A model generated the notes under the pieces. That model saw only the letters and a program-made list of their open reading frames with translations. It was not told the origin of the DNA and made no database searches. From IMG/VR virus record IMGVR_UViG_3300024312_000003, positions 116,491 to 180,490 of that record: DNA of 64,000 nucleotides; one strand, written 5' to 3'. This document shows positions 9,823 to 51,126 of the stretch, in pieces. The DNA is from a virus. How positions within the stretch are numbered: the stretch's first letter is position 1; every line of letters starts with the position of its first letter. Both the position numbers and the translations under genes were made by a program.

Positions 9823-10278
9823 TCAGCTCACTGTTGGTGAACCCGACATTTTGTTAGCAATAGATCGACACAAATCAAATTCTGAACGATCGTTCTTTGA
9901 TTGAATAACATGAATCATCCAATCTCGAATAATGTCGATTTCAGTTAGTTGAGTAATATGGATAATCGGAATATTCAAACGCTCACAAATCTGAATTTCT
10001 GCTTCAATTCCTTTTGATTCTTTCCAACCATCCATTTGATAGACAAGCATATACTTACAACTAGAAAGCATTGCTTCATCCAATCTACCCCAATTCTTCC
10101 AACCGCCTTCCATGGCATTTGGTGAGTGTTGAATTAGACCAACATTGTGTACAATTGGAGAGATGACGGGAATACCAGCATTAATTAGCTCAACTGCTTT
10201 TTCTGCAACTTGTTTAACTCTGGCTTCTTGAACAGACTTATCTGGATGAGAATATGGTGAAGCTAGATAACCCAACAT
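9823..10278 (-). CDS. DUF1937-like (nucleoside deoxyribosyltransferase-like fold) protein
   Basis: YLASPYSHPD, SPIVH, WKESKGI.AEI pattern. Confidence 0.75.
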   Translation of the reverse strand: MLGYLASPYSHPDKSVQEARVKQVAEKAVELINAGIPVISPIVHNVGLIQHSPNAMEGGWKNWGRLDEAMLSSCKYMLVYQMDGWKESKGIEAEIQICERLNIPIIHITQLTEIDIIRDWMIHVIQSKNDRSEFDLCRSIANKMSGSPTVS

Positions 10279-35379: not shown

Positions 35380-37491
35380 TTACCAATCGAGCCAACCGGG
35401 TCGATTTTCGTTTTTAATGTTGGGAATGAGTTCGCTAGTATCACAAACATCAGAGATGCTCTCCAAAGCAGCAACATCAGATACTTCCATATTCATAATT
35501 GCTGCAACTTGTTCTCTACTCCACTTAATAATGTCGTTAGAACGAGTAGAGATATTAGATTCTTTACCTGTGTCGAGAAAGACATTGACAACCCTAACTA
35601 TCTCTGTTTGTCCCAATCGATCTACTCTTGATACTGTTTGATCATATTCGTGCGCTCTAAATGGCGAATTCATGAGTATAACAGTATTAGCCATTATTAA
35701 TGGTACTGCTGTTGATAATGAGTCAAACGTAGCAATTAAGGGATTTATATCCTCGTCTTTTTCAAACGATTTAATTATTTCTGATAAGTTCTTATTTGTA
35801 TCGGCATAAACTTTCATTGGTTTATATCCGTTTTCTTCTAGGAAAGAGAACATCTCATCAACCACAGCGACATAGCTTGTAAATATGATTGTTTTCTTCT
35901 CGGAAGAGTCAATTAAATCAAATATACTAACTTCGTCTTCAGTTTCTTTATTAGATCCTGATCCCCAAGACAATTTCATCTTCGTGGTATTTCTAACGAT
36001 ATCTACATTACACTGTTCTCTTTGTTTTCCTAATATTCTACCCAATGCTTCGCCTTGTACTTTTAAATAATAATACTTATAAACAGACTTACTGTTTCTA
36101 AAATCTTTAACCATGTTAGATGGTAGATTTGGTATTATTACTTTATTTTCGTAATTATTACAAAAGGCTACTTCTTCTTTATTATTCATCGGGTCTAAAC
36201 CGCCGTGTAGAGCGTTTGCGTATTTTTCATAGCGCAGATATTCATCATGCTCTTCTCGCGTCTTTATCGTCTTTTTAAAAGCTTCTAGGCATGTTTTATA
36301 AATGGAAACATAATGACCCATGTTGTTTTTATAGTATCGAAGTCTCTCATCTATAAACTTCGACATTTTAACTCTTATCTCGGCCAAAGTATATTCTTGC
36401 CCATTAGACATCCTTACGTCAGCTCTTTTTACTTCAACAACATTACCGACAACTTTGGCTTTTTCAATTTTGAAACTCATAAAGCCAATTCGGTTTGCTA
36501 GTATATCGAGACCTCTTGCAACACTTACACCAAAGATCTTTTTGAATCTATCGGCAACATCTTTATTAAAGAATGAGTCTATGGTTGTCATTAAAGATAT
36601 TACTTCGGAACCCATTGCTTTAACGGGAGTTCCAGACATCCAAAGTACGTGATTGCAATTAAGTATAGAACAAAGTTGTATAAAGTATTGTGTTCTGGCT
36701 GAACTCATGTCGTTGAAATTATGACATTCATCCAATACCACAAATGGTTTCTTATAAAGCTGTTTTACTTTGTCAAAGAAAATAACAGCTTTTTCCAAAG
36801 ATTCGTAGTGGAAAACATAATGAGTGTAACCATACTCAAGAGGATCATTCGATCTAGAATCCCAAACTTTAAATCCCGGTCTTAAACAATCGTTAAGAGT
36901 AGTTCTCCAAACTCTATCAATTGAATTAGGCGGAACAACAGCCACAAATACATCAGCTTCTAAGGAATGTGATAGGAATATGGATGTTAGAGTCTTACCG
37001 CTTCCAGGAGCTGCGGCTAAAAGATAACCTTTTAGCTTAAATTTCTGGACCATTTGATCGTAAGTCTTTATAAATTCTTCCTGATGATCCAACGGACTGA
37101 AAAGGATATCTGATAACTTACCCTTATTCATCATTGAATTATACTCAGTCTGAGTCGACTTAAGCCAAGTGTCAGTATATATTCTGTCTATTATTTTAGT
37201 TATTATTCTCGGACCGACTCTGTATGCTTTTTTATGACTTAATAAAGTTCTAAGAACATAAACAAAATCAGGTAAAAAGAAGGAATGCATAATAAGATGA
37301 TTTCTACCAACTTCGTTGAAGAAATTCAATCCTATCCTACTGGTTCCCCAGACTTTTTCCATGTCCCTTAATAATTTCTCTCCAGGTATACCTTTTATCT
37401 TAACAATGTTATTAGATTCCTCCACACTGATGGAGCTTAGTAGTCTCATTATCTTTTCTAACATAACTATCTCGTAAGTTATTTTAATCAA
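35380..37491 (-). CDS. SF2 (SNF2/DEAD-like) helicase
   Basis: AAPGSGKT, LDECHNF, MSGTP, Q..SRVDRLGQ motif VI. Confidence 0.88.
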   Translation of the reverse strand: MIKITYEIVMLEKIMRLLSSISVEESNNIVKIKGIPGEKLLRDMEKVWGTSRIGLNFFNEVGRNHLIMHSFFLPDFVYVLRTLLSHKKAYRVGPRIITKIIDRIYTDTWLKSTQTEYNSMMNKGKLSDILFSPLDHQEEFIKTYDQMVQKFKLKGYLLAAAPGSGKTLTSIFLSHSLEADVFVAVVPPNSIDRVWRTTLNDCLRPGFKVWDSRSNDPLEYGYTHYVFHYESLEKAVIFFDKVKQLYKKPFVVLDECHNFNDMSSARTQYFIQLCSILNCNHVLWMSGTPVKAMGSEVISLMTTIDSFFNKDVADRFKKIFGVSVARGLDILANRIGFMSFKIEKAKVVGNVVEVKRADVRMSNGQEYTLAEIRVKMSKFIDERLRYYKNNMGHYVSIYKTCLEAFKKTIKTREEHDEYLRYEKYANALHGGLDPMNNKEEVAFCNNYENKVIIPNLPSNMVKDFRNSKSVYKYYYLKVQGEALGRILGKQREQCNVDIVRNTTKMKLSWGSGSNKETEDEVSIFDLIDSSEKKTIIFTSYVAVVDEMFSFLEENGYKPMKVYADTNKNLSEIIKSFEKDEDINPLIATFDSLSTAVPLIMANTVILMNSPFRAHEYDQTVSRVDRLGQTEIVRVVNVFLDTGKESNISTRSNDIIKWSREQVAAIMNMEVSDVAALESISDVCDTSELIPNIKNENRPGWLDW

Positions 37492-37549
37492 ATGATTTCG
37501 ATAAATAACAGCATAAAAGAGAAGGATTTCATACCTTCTCTTTTATGCC

Positions 37550-38056
37550 TTATTCATTTAACCTATAAACATAAGTTCTAACTTTATTACCTTCCGGTAA
37601 TTGTCCCAGTTCATGGATTTGTTCTACTCGGTACTTATGCAGATGCGAGAAGTTAAAGAAAGCATCTCCTTCGTATGCTTTTTCCACAATGGTGATGTGG
37701 ATCTCTTCAACTCTGTGATTCTTAAGAACTTCTTCATAAATAGAAGCTCCTCCAATTACCCAAACAACTCCAGGATTGGAAAAGTTAATTGCTTGTTCAA
37801 TTGATTGACAAACAAGAGCGCCTTTTGCATCGTAATTGTGATGTCGACTGATAACAGTATTTACTCTATTTGGAAGTGGTTTAAATTTCTCAGGAATGGA
37901 TTCCCAAGTCTTTCTTCCCATTATAACTGAGTGACCTTCTGTTACCTGTTTAAAGTAACGCATGTCTTCAGGAATTCTCCATGGTAAAGTATTGTCTTTA
38001 CCTATCACTCCGTTTATGGAGCACGCTAAAATTAGCTTTAGTTTTTTATCGTACAT
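37550..38056 (-). CDS. folA: Dihydrofolate reductase
   Basis: GVIG....LPWRIPEDM.YF, VIMGRKTWESI..PLPNR.N, VIGGA.IY. Confidence 0.97.
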   Translation of the reverse strand: MYDKKLKLILACSINGVIGKDNTLPWRIPEDMRYFKQVTEGHSVIMGRKTWESIPEKFKPLPNRVNTVISRHHNYDAKGALVCQSIEQAINFSNPGVVWVIGGASIYEEVLKNHRVEEIHITIVEKAYEGDAFFNFSHLHKYRVEQIHELGQLPEGNKVRTYVYRLNE

Positions 38057-38118
38057 AATTTAAAAAAAAAGATGTGGATAAATAGATAGGGGGTGATCCC
38101 CCTATCTATGTTTAGTTA

Positions 38119-38418
38119 TCAAACCGCCGCAGCCGGAAACTTAATCGCTGGATGAGATTCGTAATTTTCAATCTTGATATCTTCGATTTTAAAATCTTCG
38201 ATATTTTTGATATCCGGGTTAAGAACCAATGTTGGCAGAGGCTTAGGCTCTCTCTCAACTTGTTCGACAATAAGATCAATTTGATTTTTGTAGATGTGGG
38301 TATTTCCACCCGTCCAAATAAAATCACCAACTTTCGTATTAGTGACCTGAGCAACCATATGCGTGAGAATAGCATAACTTGCAATGTTAAAAGGAACGCC
38401 CAAAGGAACGTCGGCTGA
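38119..38418 (-). CDS. thyA: Thymidylate synthase exon 2
   Basis: SADVPLGVPFNIASY, GNTHIY, Y..HPAIKFP.AV. Confidence 0.95.
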   Translation of the reverse strand, partial: SADVPLGVPFNIASYAILTHMVAQVTNTKVGDFIWTGGNTHIYKNQIDLIVEQVEREPKPLPTLVLNPDIKNIEDFKIEDIKIENYESHPAIKFPAAAV

Positions 38419-38755
38419 TGTTGAGTTCAATATGGTTCGTTAATCCATACCCGCACCATGACGTGCAGCTGCATGTTTCCATGCATGACCAGACTATATC
38501 ATCTTTCCTATTTGGAAAGCTTTCTGTTTCGAACCACTTGGTTCTACTCTACTTACTTCCAGCGTTTGCTGTGTTTTCGATAGTCGTTGAACGTGCCTCC
38601 AATCATTGGAGGATTCGCTGCTGGTTGTCCAATCCATCTCGTTTTCAAACCATGGCTTTGCTTTGCAGCTCGCAGTGGTGAAATGGCTCTAAGGAGTTTC
38701 TAGCAATTAAGAAAGTTTTCTAATGAGATTACTCTCAAAAGGCGCTCAGTAATTA
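38419..38755 (-). mobile_element. Group I intron in thyA (337 nt, no homing endonuclease)
   Basis: P AATTGCTAGAAAC, Q AACCAGCAGC, R GTTCAACGACTA, S GATATAGTCTG; P1 with U:G after CAGCGT; splits YQR|SADV. Confidence 0.92.
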
Positions 38756-39706
38756 ACGCTGATACAGAAGGCATGAAAGTCTACCACTAGGAATTCCAAT
38801 TTCCTTAGCAATCTTAGCAGCGATTTTGAAACCACTCTCTCCAGATTCTACAGCTTGAGTAATTTCGATTATTCGAGACTCATGACCAGCAGTAATGATA
38901 TCTGCGGTGATTTCTTCCAAAGGAATTGGTTCCACGTCAAACTGGAACAAGCAATGACATGCTGCCAAAGCCATTTTACCTTGAATAACATTATCTTGAG
39001 GACTAATGGTTTCGTCAGGCAGATCGGCAGGATTCCAGGCAGTAACAATGATGCGTCTAGAATAAGGACGATTCTTAATCGTATCAATTGCTTCTTGAAG
39101 CTGATCGATAACTAGACCTGATGGAGTTTTCCAATTGCGCCATTGTGCACCATATACTGGACCGAGATCACCGGATTTAGCAATCGTATATTCAACAAAT
39201 GGATTAACACCACCGTCAAGTAGAAACTTCATGGTTCCTTTAGTAAAACCATTCTTAAGTCCATCTTGCATGTATTCGTTTACTTTGGTACGAATAACAT
39301 CTAGTGGTTCTCCGATATTGTAAATACCAGATTCGATATCTGCTTTTTTCAGATAACCAATTACCTGTTCCTCATGCAGATTATGAGCTTTAGAATATTC
39401 TGAGATCAATTCATTAAAAGGACGAATTCTTTTAATGACAGCGTCTTCTTTAAGAGCCCAGCTGTCCCAGATGTGTACGTCTTTTTCAAGAAGATAATTG
39501 ATGTTGGTATCACCTTTGATGAACCAAATCAGCTCTTCAATGATTCCTCTGGTAAATACCTTCTTAGTCGTCAAAAGAGGAAAACCTTCTCGGAGATTAA
39601 AACGCATCATTGCACCAAAAATAGCAATCGTTCCAGTGTTGGTTCGATCGTCTCTCTCAGTGCCGTTTTCCAAAATATTCTTAACAAGATCTGTGTATTG
39701 TTTCAT
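38756..39706 (-). CDS. thyA: Thymidylate synthase exon 1 with large insertions
   Basis: DRT.TGT, GFPLLTTKK, EL.WF..G.TN, LGPVYG.QWR, ACH, YQR. Confidence 0.95.
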
Positions 39707-39717
39707 TTTAGTTTCCT

Positions 39718-40383
39718 TTAAAAATTGTTGATTTTCTGAAGAGCTTGAATAATCTTTAGACTTGTTTCTAAAGCCAGCAAATCTGATTCCTCAAATGTCA
39801 CCTCATTGTTAATTTCTTCAATAACCAAATCAAATTCAGTCATATTCTCAAGATGATGGTTTCTACATTCTTGAAATTGATTAGCTACTAGGTGATGGTG
39901 TGCCTCAGGTTTATGATCAAAAAAATCAAACTTACCACGAGATTCCAGTCTCTGTAGGGAAACCCCTACAGAGACTGTGATGTAATAACGCATTTTGTAG
40001 AATTGCTCACCATTCAAGATGTAGTCTTGAATGTGATTTACCAATTTCTTATCGAAGTCAGTTTTACCCTGAATAGCGTATGCTGAATCCATATATCGAT
40101 CCAACAAAATTACTTTTCCAGTTTTTAACTGAGGTACTAGAATTTTCTTGGTAAATTCAGCGTGGGATGATAACATACCCAATAGCATTGCCTCATTGCT
40201 TGGTTCCTCACCGCTTTGAAACAACGCTGTTCTTGCCATTTCGCCGTAAGGAGTACCTCCAGGCGCCCGATATGACTCACAATCCACGCCCGCCTTTATC
40301 AGACACTCTTTAACTTTTTTGACAAATGTGGTTTTGCCACTTCCGTCAATACCTTCAAAAATGACAGCAATTCCTTTACTCAT
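39718..40383 (-). CDS. tmk: Thymidylate kinase
   Basis: FEGIDGSGKTT, R.PGGT, LLDRY..S..A.QG. Confidence 0.9.
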   Translation of the reverse strand: MSKGIAVIFEGIDGSGKTTFVKKVKECLIKAGVDCESYRAPGGTPYGEMARTALFQSGEEPSNEAMLLGMLSSHAEFTKKILVPQLKTGKVILLDRYMDSAYAIQGKTDFDKKLVNHIQDYILNGEQFYKMRYYITVSVGVSLQRLESRGKFDFFDHKPEAHHHLVANQFQECRNHHLENMTEFDLVIEEINNEVTFEESDLLALETSLKIIQALQKINNF

Positions 40384-40933: not shown

Positions 40934-42004
40934 TTAAATCCGGTAATGTTTGTCGATGAAACCCAAATCGACGTTGCCGACCAGCATCCAGTTGATCCAA
41001 ATCTTCTTATCAGCATCAATAACGCGCCAATGCCCTCGCCTCCAATGCAGTCTGGGTGACTTGCGTTCACCAGAAGCAATGGCTTCGGAATTACTCTTCT
41101 TATCCTTGAACTGTTGGGCCAAGTCAACGATGTGGTAATTCTTCAAGGGAGTTTTACCTGCCTTGATTCGCTTCTTGTTGATCTGAGAACCAGCGGTGAT
41201 CTTGACGGATTCGGCAATCTTTGCATCCAGAGCAATACAGATAGCCAAAGCCTGACGTTCGGCCAATGCGATCGCCTTTTGCATCATCTCGTCTCGATTG
41301 TTCAGTCTGAACCATTTGTCTTTCTCAAACTCAACAAAATGCGTGAATTCGATTTCATGACAAACACCTTCTTCCTGTTCTTGGCTGGCGAGTGTTGTAA
41401 CGCTTTTGCCATGCATGCGGAATTCAAAAACAGTGATCGGGTACGGAAGACGAACATCGCTTGTGAGATACTGGAGCATGTTACCCAAGGCATTGTACCA
41501 ATCGTGTTTGACGACAATGGTATTGCTGTGCCTGATCATCCTTTCCAAAAGATCCAGATTGGAGTATCGATCAGCGTCGCTAACTTTGGAGAAATCCGGA
41601 GCAAGGGGATAAAGCCCCTTGTGAATGATTCGAGATTCCTTTTGATTGATCACGACTTCAGAAAGCTTGTGACTGCGAGTGTGCTCGTTCGATTCGATTT
41701 GCTCAAACGCATTTGCTTTCATCCAATTGTCCAGAATTTGCACAGATCGTGCATCTTCCATACGACACTCCAGAATCATCTTGTGGTACTGAAGCAAAAC
41801 AAAGAACTGACGAGAATATTCATCCCCCAATTGCGTCTTGACTTCATTGACGACCTTAGACTGATACTTCTTAAAGTCTTGACCTTTCTCGTAGTACTTA
41901 CCAAACAGCTGAGCGAGCTTTGCAGTCAGAATGGGGTTCGTGCCGACATTGATGCATTCGTCAACAGTTGTTTTAATTTCTAGAATTTCTTGTTGAGTAA
42001 ACAT
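40934..42004 (-). CDS. Hypothetical protein with C-terminal SPRLHWRRGHWR motif
   Basis: 356-aa ORF with biased codons. Confidence 0.75.
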   Translation of the reverse strand: MFTQQEILEIKTTVDECINVGTNPILTAKLAQLFGKYYEKGQDFKKYQSKVVNEVKTQLGDEYSRQFFVLLQYHKMILECRMEDARSVQILDNWMKANAFEQIESNEHTRSHKLSEVVINQKESRIIHKGLYPLAPDFSKVSDADRYSNLDLLERMIRHSNTIVVKHDWYNALGNMLQYLTSDVRLPYPITVFEFRMHGKSVTTLASQEQEEGVCHEIEFTHFVEFEKDKWFRLNNRDEMMQKAIALAERQALAICIALDAKIAESVKITAGSQINKKRIKAGKTPLKNYHIVDLAQQFKDKKSNSEAIASGERKSPRLHWRRGHWRVIDADKKIWINWMLVGNVDLGFIDKHYRI

Positions 42005-43644: not shown

Positions 43645-43968
43645 TTAAGCGAATTGAACGGTTTCAACAAAATCACCGAGGTGATTGGCGATAGCCATCC
43701 AAAAATTGAAAGCCTTCATGAAAAGGCCGGAATGCAGGAGGTAGATGAATGCGATGCCCGCAGCGATCCAGCCCATTGCGATCACACCGGTTGCCGAGAC
43801 TACCAAGGCAATGATGTAACCTGCAAAGATGCTGCATCCAATCGAGAACAGCACGAAGAAGAGCGCTTGGATCAACTTACGTGTTGTCGATGCATTACCG
43901 CCTTCGACGTTGGTAGTCATTGTTTTTTCCTTACTCTTCCTTCTTTTGGAAGATGTTGCGGATGCCAT
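43645..43968 (-). CDS. Small membrane protein (TM hairpin)
   Basis: Likely start MTTNVEG; hydrophobic hairpin. Confidence 0.7.
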   Translation of the reverse strand: MASATSSKRRKSKEKTMTTNVEGGNASTTRKLIQALFFVLFSIGCSIFAGYIIALVVSATGVIAMGWIAAGIAFIYLLHSGLFMKAFNFWMAIANHLGDFVETVQFA

Positions 43969-44401
43969 TGTTGACGTAAGAGCACAAGGTCAACGAGAGG
44001 TTCGTCAGACCGTTGCGCAGCGGATTGAGGAAGTTCTGAGGCCACAGCAGGAAGTAAGCCCAGAAGATGAACTCGACCAAGACAGCGATGAAGCCGCCAG
44101 TCAGTCCAAGTGCGGAAAGAATCATGAAGATCACCACGATGCCAACCACTGCAAACGCAATATTGACAAAAACCGCACAGATGAAATACATGAACCTGGC
44201 AAAGTTCTGAGTGGAGTTCATCGACCAGCCGTTGAACTTTGCGTAAGTGTGAATGTCGTTCGATTCCGGGTTGGTGACGGTATCTTTGTCGACGACTTGA
44301 ATCACAGCCGTGTTGTCGATTTCAACAACACGAACATAAGTGCCTGCTTGACGGTCCGGGAAGGCTTCGTGACCGGAAAAGAAGGTGGCGAAGGAGGACA
44401 T
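43931..44401 (-). CDS. Membrane protein with N-terminal HEAFP motif
   Basis: FFSGHEAFP...VRVVE, TM hairpin. Confidence 0.75.
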   Translation of the reverse strand: MSSFATFFSGHEAFPDRQAGTYVRVVEIDNTAVIQVVDKDTVTNPESNDIHTYAKFNGWSMNSTQNFARFMYFICAVFVNIAFAVVGIVVIFMILSALGLTGGFIAVLVEFIFWAYFLLWPQNFLNPLRNGLTNLSLTLCSYVNNGIRNIFQKKEE

Positions 44402-44443: not shown

Positions 44444-44492
44444 ATTGGAATAAGTATAGCACCTATTCCAAGATTGTTATATGTATCTGAAA
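44444..44492 (-). promoter_or_regulatory. 49-bp promoter plus hairpin repeat, copy 1
   Basis: 45/49 identical to 46503-46551; ACATATAAC followed by TTGGAATA..TATTCCAA hairpin. Confidence 0.65.
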
Positions 44493-44528
44493 CTTTTTTC
44501 ATTACAATTTCAGATACTCTACTGCGTA

Positions 44529-45769: not shown

Positions 45770-46192
45770 TTAGAAGTTATCATCTTGAGAGTCATAGTAG
45801 TCCATTTCAGACTCGTAGTCTTCTCGGTCTTTCCTGACTCGCTCCCGATGCTTCTCTTTACCCCAGCATTCTTTGCAGATTATCAGAGGCTCATCGCCTT
45901 GGGGTGCGTAGAAATCATACCACTTCCAAGAGATCGCATCTTTCATCAAAACTGTTTTCGAACAGTCGTGGCAGACTTCAGATTGCTGGCCTTCGTGTTC
46001 TTCGCATTTTTCATCACATTCCCTGCAACAAACAAAAGACGAAACAATGCCGAAGCTGTCCATTTCACGACGAAGAACCTGAGCCAGATTCAGATCAGAC
46101 CGAGCATGTTCACAAGCACCATCATCTTCAATGAGTGCCTTCTTCTGTTCTTCAGTCTTACCTTCAATCCCGACGTTGGTAAACCAATTCAT
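45770..46192 (-). CDS. Cys-rich putative zinc-binding protein
   Basis: C.H, CCREC, CHDC, CKEC. Confidence 0.65.
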   Translation of the reverse strand: MNWFTNVGIEGKTEEQKKALIEDDGACEHARSDLNLAQVLRREMDSFGIVSSFVCCRECDEKCEEHEGQQSEVCHDCSKTVLMKDAISWKWYDFYAPQGDEPLIICKECWGKEKHRERVRKDREDYESEMDYYDSQDDNF

Positions 46193-46206: not shown

Positions 46207-46431
46207 TTACTTATTTCGATTCAAAACGAATTTCTTGACAAAACGCTCCATGTCCGTGAGTTCTGAGTCCGGAAGATTCATCAGCGGGTACAAAACTTCA
46301 GAAATGGAAATACCAGGCATACCAGCTTCGTTGAGAAGCTGGTCAACGTATTGACTGACATCCGGGTTTGGATGGGTCTTGAGTTGGAAAAGACCGTTCA
46401 GCCAGAAAACACAAAGTTCGGTGTTCTTCAT
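46207..46431 (-). CDS. Hypothetical protein
   Basis: ORF track. Confidence 0.6.
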   Translation of the reverse strand: MKNTELCVFWLNGLFQLKTHPNPDVSQYVDQLLNEAGMPGISISEVLYPLMNLPDSELTDMERFVKKFVLNRNK

Positions 46432-46502
46432 TTGGTATTTAAAAGAATTGTCTTTGGTCTATGTTTATAATTTTAACCAAAAGAAAATCAATTAAGTTAA
46501 GA

Positions 46503-46551
46503 ATTGGAATAAGTATAGCACTTATTCCAATTTAGTTATATGTATCTGAAA
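46503..46551 (-). promoter_or_regulatory. 49-bp promoter plus hairpin repeat, copy 2
   Basis: See copy 1. Confidence 0.65.
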
Positions 46552-46566
46552 ATTATTTCATTGTAT

Positions 46567-46800
46567 TTAATAGTTTGGTTTAAAAGTATCTTTCTTAATG
46601 TAAGCGCGATCTTTGTGACTGTACTTTACATTATCTGGAAACATTTCGGAATACATTTTCAAGTCAATGCTGGCTTGAGGTTGAGATATTCCAAAATAAT
46701 ACATCAATGCATTTCGGTCAGCTTTACCGTTAAACATGATGAAACATTCAATGAAACGCAAGCGTTGAGTTACTGCGTATGTGACTGTGTTTTTAGACAT
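46567..46800 (-). CDS. Stand-alone CapW/BrxR-type winged helix-turn-helix protein (no WYL domain)
   Basis: QRLRFIE....NG...R..L..YFGISQPQASIDL..Y....PDN..Y...RAY....F.P matches the N-terminal wHTH pattern of WYL repressors. Confidence 0.72.
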   Translation of the reverse strand: MSKNTVTYAVTQRLRFIECFIMFNGKADRNALMYYFGISQPQASIDLKMYSEMFPDNVKYSHKDRAYIKKDTFKPNY

Positions 46801-46890
46801 GTTGATTTATATTGGTGTTTATTCGAGTTAGTCATATGTATCTAAAAATATTTAGAACATAAAAGAGAGGTTTACCCTCTCTTTTATGTC

Positions 46891-47352
46891 TTAGAATAGA
46901 AATGATTGTTTCGGGTCTGGATATTTCTTAAACTTACTAAGTATAAAGTAAAAGTATCGTCTATGCATCGGTACTTTTAATTCTTTCATTATTTTTAAGA
47001 ATACATCATCAGCCACGGATCTATTTATTTTTTCTACTTCACCATTGACTCTAAGTTTTAGCTTATAGCAAAGATAGTCGTGAAATATTCCAGCTTTAAA
47101 AACCGGATCATTCATAGCCATGTTTCTTGATAAGTTAAAAGGAATGATTGGACCAATCGTAACAAAGTAGTTTGGTATATTTACGTCTATTCGATTTCCA
47201 TTTTGTTTAAATGAAAAACTTATACCGCCTACCACTCTCCAAGATTCGTATCCATCTTTCATTCTGGAATTATCAACGTATGGCTCTAGTCTCTTTACTG
47301 AATCAAATCTTGAGACATGAGTCATGTTGTGATATTGTCTATTATTTTTCAT
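46891..47352 (-). CDS. DUF1353-like protein
   Basis: IP..FVT...IP, AGIFHDYL, R..AD..F...M. Confidence 0.7.
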   Translation of the reverse strand: MKNNRQYHNMTHVSRFDSVKRLEPYVDNSRMKDGYESWRVVGGISFSFKQNGNRIDVNIPNYFVTIGPIIPFNLSRNMAMNDPVFKAGIFHDYLCYKLKLRVNGEVEKINRSVADDVFLKIMKELKVPMHRRYFYFILSKFKKYPDPKQSFLF

Positions 47353-49683: not shown

Positions 49684-51126
49684 TTATATGCTTCTTATCA
49701 ATGACTTTATTAAAAACAGAACAATTGGAACGTAATAGAACTGATCAAGAGGATTCCATTCTGGGATAGAGTCTGCAATTTTCTTAACAGACTTTAAGTC
49801 CAGTGATTCGTCTTTTATGTATCTTCTAATCATTACTTCCAGTAGGCTTTGTTTGCCAGGTTCTGAATCGTTTTCATAAAAGGCTTGAGATAAAACGTAA
49901 TAACCATCTTTAAAAGACGGATGTATAACTGGCGGTTCATTATCGATAGATGGCTTACCTGGTAAAGTAAACCCAGACAACACATCATCTACGACATCGG
50001 AGAGAGTTTTTGGACGAAGTTGTGATAAGTAACCACCTATTGATCTCAATGAAGTCTCTGGAGAAGTGACATCACCAGTTATTGTCTTTGGCACTCTTGT
50101 ATATGTATAGTCTACATTAACAGAGGGATCGGCCGGATAAATTACTTCTTTTATGCCGCTGAATCTAATACTCTCGTGCAGCGGTTCGTAAGAAAACATA
50201 TTGCTGTAGACTTTACCAGCTTTTGTAAAGCTGTGTTTTAACAATACTTCATTCTTAGTGAACATTGCGTCCCAGAAAGAGGTGGCTCTCAGAGTATTGT
50301 CGTCGTCTACATTTAGTTTTCTGATGTATCTTATTTCATCAGAATCCCAGGTGGAGAAATTCTTCAAAATAGCGGTGGTATGATAGTGATCATACGTTGG
50401 AGTATTTTGAAGAGGCACCAGCATAACACTGTATTCTCTACTGAAGAAAGATTTGAAATAACTATCAGCAATGTTTCTGTAGCTATTTTGGAGTTGTTTA
50501 AGAACAACGTAATCTTCTTCAAAAAGAAGTGGATTCTGTCCATGTATCAGAAAATCTTTTTGATAAAAGAAAGTCTGTATTACCTTAGAGTTAAGATCGT
50601 TTCTTCTCTGATTAGACGAGTAGTCAATAAGAGAATAATCTATAACGTGACACGTTTGAGTCATGATGCTCATTCTGGTCACGTTTGTTATTTGGAATAC
50701 ACCCTCTCTTCCAGAACCAATGTCTGCTAAAAATACATCACCTTCGTTAGGGATAACAAAAGGATAGACAGTAGCGCTACCTGTGGTAGTCATTGTTTTG
50801 GAATCAGAATCCTGACTGGTTACCAAGGGACTGGTAACCTTTAATTCCATTCCATTTATTAATTTATATTGCTGGTGAACTGGATTCGTACCCAGACCTT
50901 GTCCAGCAGAGGCATTATCTTTATTTAGAATTTGACTATAGTAGTTAACACTCCAAGAACTACCTTCAACGTGAGATAACAATGAACTAACCGGAATTAG
51001 TTTGGTATCAACAGTGACACCTTTGTATTCTGGTTTTGCTATTGCTACTGTGATTGGTTTTGGAGCATCAACAATGTCATTTTTTGGATTAACTAATGGC
51101 ATTTTAATTCCTATTACCGGCACCAA
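49684..51126 (-). CDS. phiKZ-like virion structural protein
   Basis: VEGSSWSVNYYSQ, PN.GD.F.ADIG.GR. Confidence 0.7.
   Translation of the reverse strand: MVPVIGIKMPLVNPKNDIVDAPKPITVAIAKPEYKGVTVDTKLIPVSSLLSHVEGSSWSVNYYSQILNKDNASAGQGLGTNPVHQQYKLINGMELKVTSPLVTSQDSDSKTMTTTGSATVYPFVIPNEGDVFLADIGSGREGVFQITNVTRMSIMTQTCHVIDYSLIDYSSNQRRNDLNSKVIQTFFYQKDFLIHGQNPLLFEEDYVVLKQLQNSYRNIADSYFKSFFSREYSVMLVPLQNTPTYDHYHTTAILKNFSTWDSDEIRYIRKLNVDDDNTLRATSFWDAMFTKNEVLLKHSFTKAGKVYSNMFSYEPLHESIRFSGIKEVIYPADPSVNVDYTYTRVPKTITGDVTSPETSLRSIGGYLSQLRPKTLSDVVDDVLSGFTLPGKPSIDNEPPVIHPSFKDGYYVLSQAFYENDSEPGKQSLLEVMIRRYIKDESLDLKSVKKIADSIPEWNPLDQFYYVPIVLFLIKSLIRSI

Follow-up and report, generated by a model that had tools for sequence, protein, structure and literature searches.

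A stand-alone CapW/BrxR-type winged-helix protein in a phiKZ-related jumbo phage, possibly an uninducible competitor at host defence operators

The locus and its phage

The window analyzed here is a stretch of 64,000 nucleotides, the last 64 kb of a 180,490-bp IMG/VR record that is estimated to be 65% complete. Its minus strand carries an ORF with an ATG start and 77 codons that encodes a 77-aa winged helix-turn-helix (wHTH) protein (Table 1). An identical protein is found on a 265-kb contig, and Megablast of the wHTH region against deposited phages returned no match. No defence operon adjoins the gene. Its neighbours are virion genes, the DUF1353 gene, and small phage genes of unknown family.

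Table 1. Features at and around the wHTH gene; positions are those of the window unless stated otherwise.
Feature	Position	Strand	Evidence or remark
480-aa protein	49684-51126		similar to phiKZ-type virion proteins
DUF1353 protein (PF07087, E 1e-10; PHROG 'tail assembly chaperone')	46891-47352	-	end of the virion-gene block, directly 5' of the wHTH gene
15-bp stem-loop right after the DUF1353 stop codon	46857..46889	-	probable terminator
Promoter-like motif directly 5' of the wHTH gene	46815..46860	-	PWM score 34.5
Dyad TCTAAA-N4-TTTAGA	~46844-46859		within the upstream half of the motif 46815..46860
ACATATGAC	46839-46831	-	ends 30 nt before the ATG of the wHTH gene
77-aa stand-alone CapW/BrxR-type winged helix gene	46567..46800, stop codon included	-	ORF, PDB phmmer, AF2, Foldseek, dN/dS
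Secondary structure of the 77-aa wHTH	H1 8-24, H2 29-36, recognition helix H3 40-53, beta wing 58-69 (residues)		AF2 model
Promoter-like motif plus 14-bp hairpin, between the wHTH stop and a 74-aa gene	46503..46564	-	PWM 55.6; one 60-nt repeat copy
140-aa acidic protein	45770-46192	-	phrog_8344
Second 60-nt promoter-plus-hairpin copy	44444..44505	-	upstream of a 156-aa gene (43931-44401)
356-aa protein	40934-42004	-	AcrVA2-like by its L005 counterpart
Nucleotide-metabolism and helicase block	35380-40383	-	
Motif site starts in the window	46860, 46564, 44505, 22805, 21250, 16061, 9825	-	nine more elsewhere in the record
109-aa Tad1-like protein	C1:82559-82888 (locus L024 160-489)	-	~33.6 kb before the window start

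The 480-aa protein is similar to virion proteins of 289 phiKZ-type phages, with the best matches in Ralstonia phages RP12 and RP31 (42% identity). A syntenic relative, L005, encodes a 70%-identical ortholog of the wHTH protein and has a phiKZ internal-head-protein domain. Judged from its sequence, the record is that of a phiKZ-related jumbo phage. RP12, a close cultured relative, has an annotated nuclear shell protein. Searches with phiKZ and RP12 queries and with Pfam RNAP profiles found neither chimallin nor RNAP in the 65%-complete record. These missing matches say nothing either way because synteny with RP12 puts the genes past the end of the record.

Several nearby genes have recognizable features. 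Two genes downstream of the wHTH gene, the 140-aa acidic protein contains several CxxC pairs, matches phrog_8344 (E 3e-39, function unknown), and is possibly a zinc-binding early protein. The nucleotide-metabolism and helicase block includes a SNF2/ResIII helicase (703 aa), a dihydrofolate reductase, a thymidylate synthase, and a thymidylate kinase. The 356-aa protein is 89% identical to an L005 protein with the precomputed label PF26125 AcrVA2-like, and its one match in the local Pfam copy, to SIMPL, falls below the threshold. The 109-aa protein matches the Tad1 'Thoeris anti-defense 1' structure 8KBB (E 8e-8) and, more weakly, 7UAV and 8KBE-H. From the presence of a Tad1 homolog and an AcrVA2-like gene in the same phage, we infer that this phage invests in counter-defence.

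A CapW/BrxR-type winged helix

A phmmer search of the PDB with the 77-aa protein returns five chains in total, every one CapW or BrxR. The top match is Sm CapW from S. maltophilia (7TB6, E 1.1e-11), followed by Pa CapW from P. aeruginosa (7TB5, 2.5e-9), Rl CapW from R. leguminosarum (9C5G, 6.5e-8), E. fergusonii BrxR (7QFZ, 1.5e-7), and Acinetobacter BrxR (7T8K, 1.7e-6). The aligned span covers query residues ~5-76 and chain residues ~8-90. The resemblance to the N-terminal wHTH of CapW and BrxR that the initial annotation had proposed is thus far above chance. Two of the sequence patterns on which that proposal was based are found as claimed, RLRFIE at residues 13-18 and FGISQPQASIDLKMY at residues 36-50. 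The third is present but with a different spacing; it reads P55-x-N57-x-x-Y60-x5-A66-Y67, with five residues rather than three between Y60 and AY.

The AlphaFold2 model, computed from an input alignment of 29 short homologs, has a pLDDT of 94.8 and a pTM of 0.83 and contains H1, H2, and H3 together with a beta wing. A Foldseek search of the PDB with this model places CapW/BrxR wHTH domains in all of the first 12 positions (TMq 0.80-0.93, rmsd 0.6-1.6 A); a different fold comes next at E 8e-3, three orders of magnitude poorer. The structural match anticipated from the sequence patterns is therefore borne out. The precomputed label PF26109 (WHD_BrxR) is attached to the protein and to its homologs. 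An hmmscan against the local Pfam copy with E up to 1, a copy that possibly lacks the PF26109 model, found no match, and PHROG, NCBIfam, and PADLOC scans assigned no family. It was thus the sequence search of the PDB, together with the precomputed labels, that revealed the CapW/BrxR link, and not the local profile libraries.

CapW and BrxR are considerably longer proteins. In Rl CapW, the wHTH (residues 1-70) is followed by a linker (71-136), a WYL domain (137-193), and a WCX domain (193-297), and the domain-swapped CapW/BrxR dimer is built from the linker, WYL, and WCX (PMC11662680). When ssDNA binds the WYL domain, the two wHTH heads are pulled apart (PMC11662680). The phage protein stops at the wHTH boundary, so the linker, WYL, and WCX are all absent, as the initial annotation had observed for WYL and WCX. 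The WYL profile PF13280 also has no match in the whole 180-kb record, whereas seven control genomes are positive in the same search. Since the protein ends at the wHTH and the record encodes no recognizable WYL domain, the protein is unable to sense ssDNA by the known route and has no counterpart of the known dimer interface. The 77-aa protein is almost certainly a CapW/BrxR-type wHTH that stands alone, lacking both WYL and WCX.

The phage wHTH and CapW share their fold (TM 0.92, rmsd 0.7 A to 7TB6; 37% identity over 73 residues), the recognition-helix motif S-x-PQAS-x-DL-x-x-Y, and the CapW-typical arginine. They differ in that CapW has the linker, WYL, WCX, ssDNA sensing, and dimer interface and lies beside a defence operon, whereas the wHTH has none of these parts and is phage-encoded. 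In addition, the variable residue after the conserved serine is A in Sm CapW and Q in the phage protein. BrxR (7QFZ, 7T8K/7T8L) also shares the fold (TM 0.82-0.93), and the S37 and Q40 positions of Acinetobacter BrxR are conserved. However, its R38 is replaced by Q, the similarity is weaker than that to CapW (E 1e-7 to 2e-6), and only BrxR has sensor and dimerization domains.

DNA-contact residues and selection

Operator binding by Sm CapW is lost entirely upon R32A mutation and also in an S42A/Q45A/S47A triple mutant, and the equivalent Ec CapW mutants likewise lose operator binding (PMC9122588). The same paper regards R32 as characteristic of CapW, not of BrxR. A gap-free alignment with an offset of +3 places R32, S42, Q45, and S47 of Sm CapW at R29, S39, Q42, and S44 of the phage protein, and all four are kept. 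R29 is nearly invariant among the short homologs (alignment A1) and invariant in the closer subset (A2). The base-reading residue of Acinetobacter BrxR is R38 (PMC9122589), whose position is occupied by Q40 in the phage protein and A43 in Sm CapW. The DNA-binding machinery is thus conserved, but because the R38 position is Q here and A in Sm CapW, the target specificity is not readable from the sequence.

Comparison with the L005 ortholog gives a dN/dS of 0.11, with saturated synonymous sites (pS 0.70), and the gene is under purifying selection. Nineteen residues across H2-H3 are identical in the two phages, and the differences are concentrated in three places: the N-terminus, the final part of H1, and the stretch that follows H3. 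The small neighbour genes have diverged to a similar degree (44-73% identity to L005), and identity is 88-91% for the virion genes and the 356-aa gene. Given the divergence of its neighbours and the identity of H2-H3, the gene lies in a fast-evolving accessory block, yet its DNA-reading head is held constant.

A promoter-like motif upstream of the gene

The initial annotation had assigned the gene its own ACATATGAC motif. This motif is not private to the gene but forms the core of a consensus that recurs along the phage genome. A 22-nt motif that includes ACATATGAC has three copies in the window and none in shuffles, and two of the three copies sit inside a 60-nt repeat. A looser search combined with a PWM scan of the whole record yields a longer consensus of approximately AATGAAAAA-N3-TTCAG-N2-ACATAT-N-AC. 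The scan finds 16 sites in the record, three of them outside the seed set. All 16 are on the coding strand, with none on the opposite strand and none in five shuffled genomes. Fourteen sites precede an ATG-started ORF at a distance of 16-148 nt, and the ORFs behind the motif are 72-376 aa long and almost all without a known family, in keeping with early genes (PMC7598289). The remaining two, at 9825 and 16061 (minus), have no ORF downstream and are followed by an ORF-free structured stretch and a tRNA region, which suggests that the same promoter class also drives RNA genes. A stable hairpin directly follows several of the 16 sites.

[quoted passage not shown] The motif described here agrees with that published description: it is AT-rich and phage-specific, precedes many small genes, and in every case points the way they are transcribed. 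A search of 46350-46950 for sigma-70-like promoters found none, against an average of 2.9 in shuffles. The motif is kept 5' of the L005 ortholog, while the spacer to the ATG has diverged, and besides this motif no palindromic operator is conserved between this locus and L005. The 16-copy motif is therefore taken to be a promoter element rather than a CapW-like palindromic operator. By analogy with the published promoters, it probably represents an early promoter class, and the wHTH gene is probably made early. The sequence TGAAA-N4-TTTCA beside GATACATATAAC was considered as an operator dyad and rejected because it is part of this strand-consistent, 16-copy consensus.

The 49-bp repeat reported by the initial annotation does exist, but its nature is that of a promoter plus a 5' hairpin. 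The two copies of the 60-nt cassette (46503-46562 and 44444-44503) are 90% identical within the genome. The copy that follows the wHTH gene is near-identical in L005 (6246-6300) although synonymous sites are saturated between the two phages, which identifies the cassette as a non-coding element under strong constraint. Its hairpin would form the 5' end of the transcript.

On the other side of the gene, the stem-loop after the DUF1353 stop codon has a folding energy of -22.1 kcal/mol and a z of -6.75, and none of 200 shuffles folds as well. It probably acts as a terminator, which would insulate the wHTH gene against the block of virion genes. Framed by this strong stem-loop and by the next promoter copy, which sets its 3' limit, the wHTH gene looks like its own monocistronic transcription unit.

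A family of solo heads in phages

A word-based homolog search among longer proteins found nothing, and an exhaustive HMMER search recovered 603 cluster representatives with E up to 1e-3. The best 150 of the 603 are a mixture of full-length proteins (~290 aa) and short ones. Forty of these 150 end no more than 15 residues past the domain, and many begin right at the domain. In a 149-row domain tree, 36 of the 40 short forms fall in one clade (SH-aLRT 95), whereas proteins of intermediate length are interleaved with full-length ones and are probably fragments. The window protein and its L005 ortholog lie outside the starred 39-row solo clade, in a polytomy (149-row tree, 78 columns). When only solo and full-length rows are compared (89 rows, 78 columns), constraining all solo forms to one group improves the likelihood by 28 lnL units over the free tree (p-AU 0.78), so a single origin of solo heads is not rejected by these alignments.

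The 77-aa protein has the conserved features of the family, R13, R29, D46, Y50, N57, and F73, and the end at F-x-x-x-aromatic (A1, A2). The tighter alignment A2 retrieves 73 IMG/VR loci, where a single-protein query gave one. At 66 of these 73 loci the protein is solo and at two it is full length; seven loci are on contigs of at least 150 kb. No recurrent partner gene is found across the IMG/VR loci, where only antisense shadow ORFs and lineage-limited clusters appear. Seven metagenomic contexts are all phage-like, with no WYL neighbour, and contain an integrase, RdgC, homing nucleases, and runs of small ORFs. The solo form is thus a viral signature of a family that is mostly phage-borne and spread across unrelated phage types.

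Two cultured phages encode solo forms, Stenotrophomonas phage Sonora (CPT_Sonora_088, 75 aa) and Yersinia jumbo phage fHe-Yen9-02 (gp285, 110 aa). Like the window protein, these WHD_BrxR proteins consist of the wHTH only, keep the DNA-contact residues, and occur in a phage context. Many further solo WHD_BrxR ORFs of 66-130 aa are present in IMG/VR and metagenomes. The solo proteins are 35-48% identical to the window protein, and all are annotated as hypothetical. Full-text literature searches and a reading of the papers on CapW, BrxR, and later WYL proteins turned up no account of phage-borne heads that lack WYL.

The nearest full-length relative is an Acinetobacter WYL-domain regulator (44% identity). 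Matches filed under 'Acinetobacter phage MD-2021a' were considered as phage solo genes and rejected, as they represent full-length BrxR in a BREX operon. In that record (L003, CAKLQH020000045.1), a 288-aa BrxR is followed by DUF1819, DUF1788, and a large ATPase, with flanking IS transposases. The record looks like bacterial or mobile-element DNA filed under phage.

Possible functions of the solo head

The reading preferred here, tentatively and short of even confidence, is that the solo head acts as an uninducible competitor at host CapW/BrxR-type operators. The head would be made early in infection, and its recognition helix would contact double-stranded DNA in the manner of CapW. It could then sit on the CapW/BrxR-type operators of host defence-operon promoters, and, lacking the ssDNA-sensing WYL and WCX domains, it could not be released by an infection or DNA-damage signal. 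The infection-triggered rise ('priming') of CBASS, BREX, and other WYL-controlled defences would thereby be blocked, and the gain would fall to the phage or its kin in later attacks. This reading is favoured because the only cellular relatives of the protein are defence regulators, because the family is spread over unrelated phages with no partner gene or fixed position, because no operator is conserved near the gene, and because the phage already invests in counter-defence (Tad1, AcrVA2-like).

Several published observations weigh against the competitor. Full CapW/BrxR dimers bind their palindromes with an affinity of only ~0.1-3 uM (PMC11662680, PMC9122589, PMC9122588). As even full dimers bind modestly and the dimer parts are absent here, a monomeric head should bind much more weakly than a dimer. 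Two further findings count against the competitor: WYL repressors act on their own operators only, with no crosstalk (bioRxiv 2025.11.13.688357), and derepression is dispensable for defence against a first infection (PMC9122588). Because induction is dispensable in the first infection, any benefit shifts to blocking the priming of survivors, which is speculative. Host-matched mimicry was also considered and shows no sign. The Sonora protein is equally distant from S. maltophilia CapW and P. aeruginosa CapW, that is, no closer to the former.

Aca autorepressors resemble the window protein in being small phage HTH proteins tied to counter-defence loci. However, Aca genes form an operon with acr genes and Aca proteins act at inverted repeats in the acr promoter, whereas the wHTH gene is monocistronic and its neighbours are not acr genes. 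The window protein is also set apart from the Aca HTH proteins by its fold, which is that of the CapW/BrxR wHTH family. The AcrVA2-like gene, the closest candidate for an anti-defence gene, is ~4.6 kb from the wHTH gene, past further promoter copies.

Regulation of the phage's own genes is nearly as likely as competition at defence operators, and likewise short of even confidence. Small phage HTH proteins usually regulate phage genes. Here the protein would adjust early or middle transcription or act as an autorepressor, for example through the AT-rich dyad TCTAAA-N4-TTTAGA that overlaps its promoter or through further sites on phage DNA, and its likeness to CapW and BrxR would reflect only the shared ancestry of a DNA-binding fold. 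The motif 5' of the gene departs from the consensus in such a way that this 6+6 dyad forms, and the recognition helix is strictly conserved in two phages that share the promoter motif. However, the L005 ortholog is not preceded by the dyad, AT-rich dyads of this kind often arise by chance, and no other repeated palindrome is tied to the gene. Additionally, close relatives in culture, such as RP12 with its annotated shell protein, form a phage nucleus, and if this phage does so too, the protein would have to be imported to reach phage DNA. The family also occurs in many unrelated phage types with neither neighbours nor position conserved. Such a distribution, without a recurrent partner, is easier to reconcile with a portable function directed at the host than with a component of one phage's own circuit.

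A host-directed function need not concern defence. The protein may instead be a host-takeover or inter-element factor that acts on DNA-damage WYL operators, on transfer genes of ICEs, prophages, or satellites, or by general nucleoid binding. Regulators with the wHTH-WYL-WCX architecture do govern DNA-damage regulons (DriD, PafBC) and are carried by mobile elements such as SXT ICEs (bioRxiv 2025.11.13.688357 among the sources), and the gene, apparently an early one, is surrounded by small genes without a known family. By sequence and by structure, however, the protein comes closest to the defence CapW/BrxR branch and not to DriD or PafBC, and this alternative is improbable.

The initial annotation had also raised a dominant-negative action. 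Through heterodimers this is unlikely, as the dimer-forming parts are missing. A variant that needs no heterodimer is a decoy at the protein level, in which the free head would dock on the WYL face of the host repressor and upset its switching. CapW has a domain-swapped arrangement in which every wHTH rests on the WYL domain of its partner (PMC9122588, PMC11662680), so a surface of the required kind is documented. Disturbing the repressor would nevertheless be expected to raise defence expression, to the detriment of the phage, and the DNA-contact residues are strictly conserved, which points to DNA binding as the activity under selection. Such a decoy is highly improbable.

The chance that the gene is a decaying, functionless remnant of a captured full-length regulator is negligible: it is a truncated form of a longer family, but this reading is already contradicted by the selection and conservation data, namely the low dN/dS with saturated synonymous sites and a protein end that coincides cleanly with the limit of the domain, a feature shared by dozens of independent phage homologs, and it also sits poorly with the gene's own promoter-like motif and terminator and with a very confident fold model.

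Implications

If the solo head does jam the switch of host defence operons, it would represent a simple, transcription-level route of counter-defence that is hardly documented. It is possible, although rather unlikely at present, that solo heads in general are a widespread and so far undescribed form of counter-defence in which uninducible heads made early block immune priming. The family is large, and its members are short, easily expressed, and found in cultured phages with tractable hosts (Stenotrophomonas, Yersinia), which makes the proposal directly testable. If the target is phage DNA instead, the protein would show that a domain of defence regulators has been recruited into phage gene control. 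The promoter-like consensus, for its part, maps for the first time what is probably an early transcription class of this uncultured jumbo phage.
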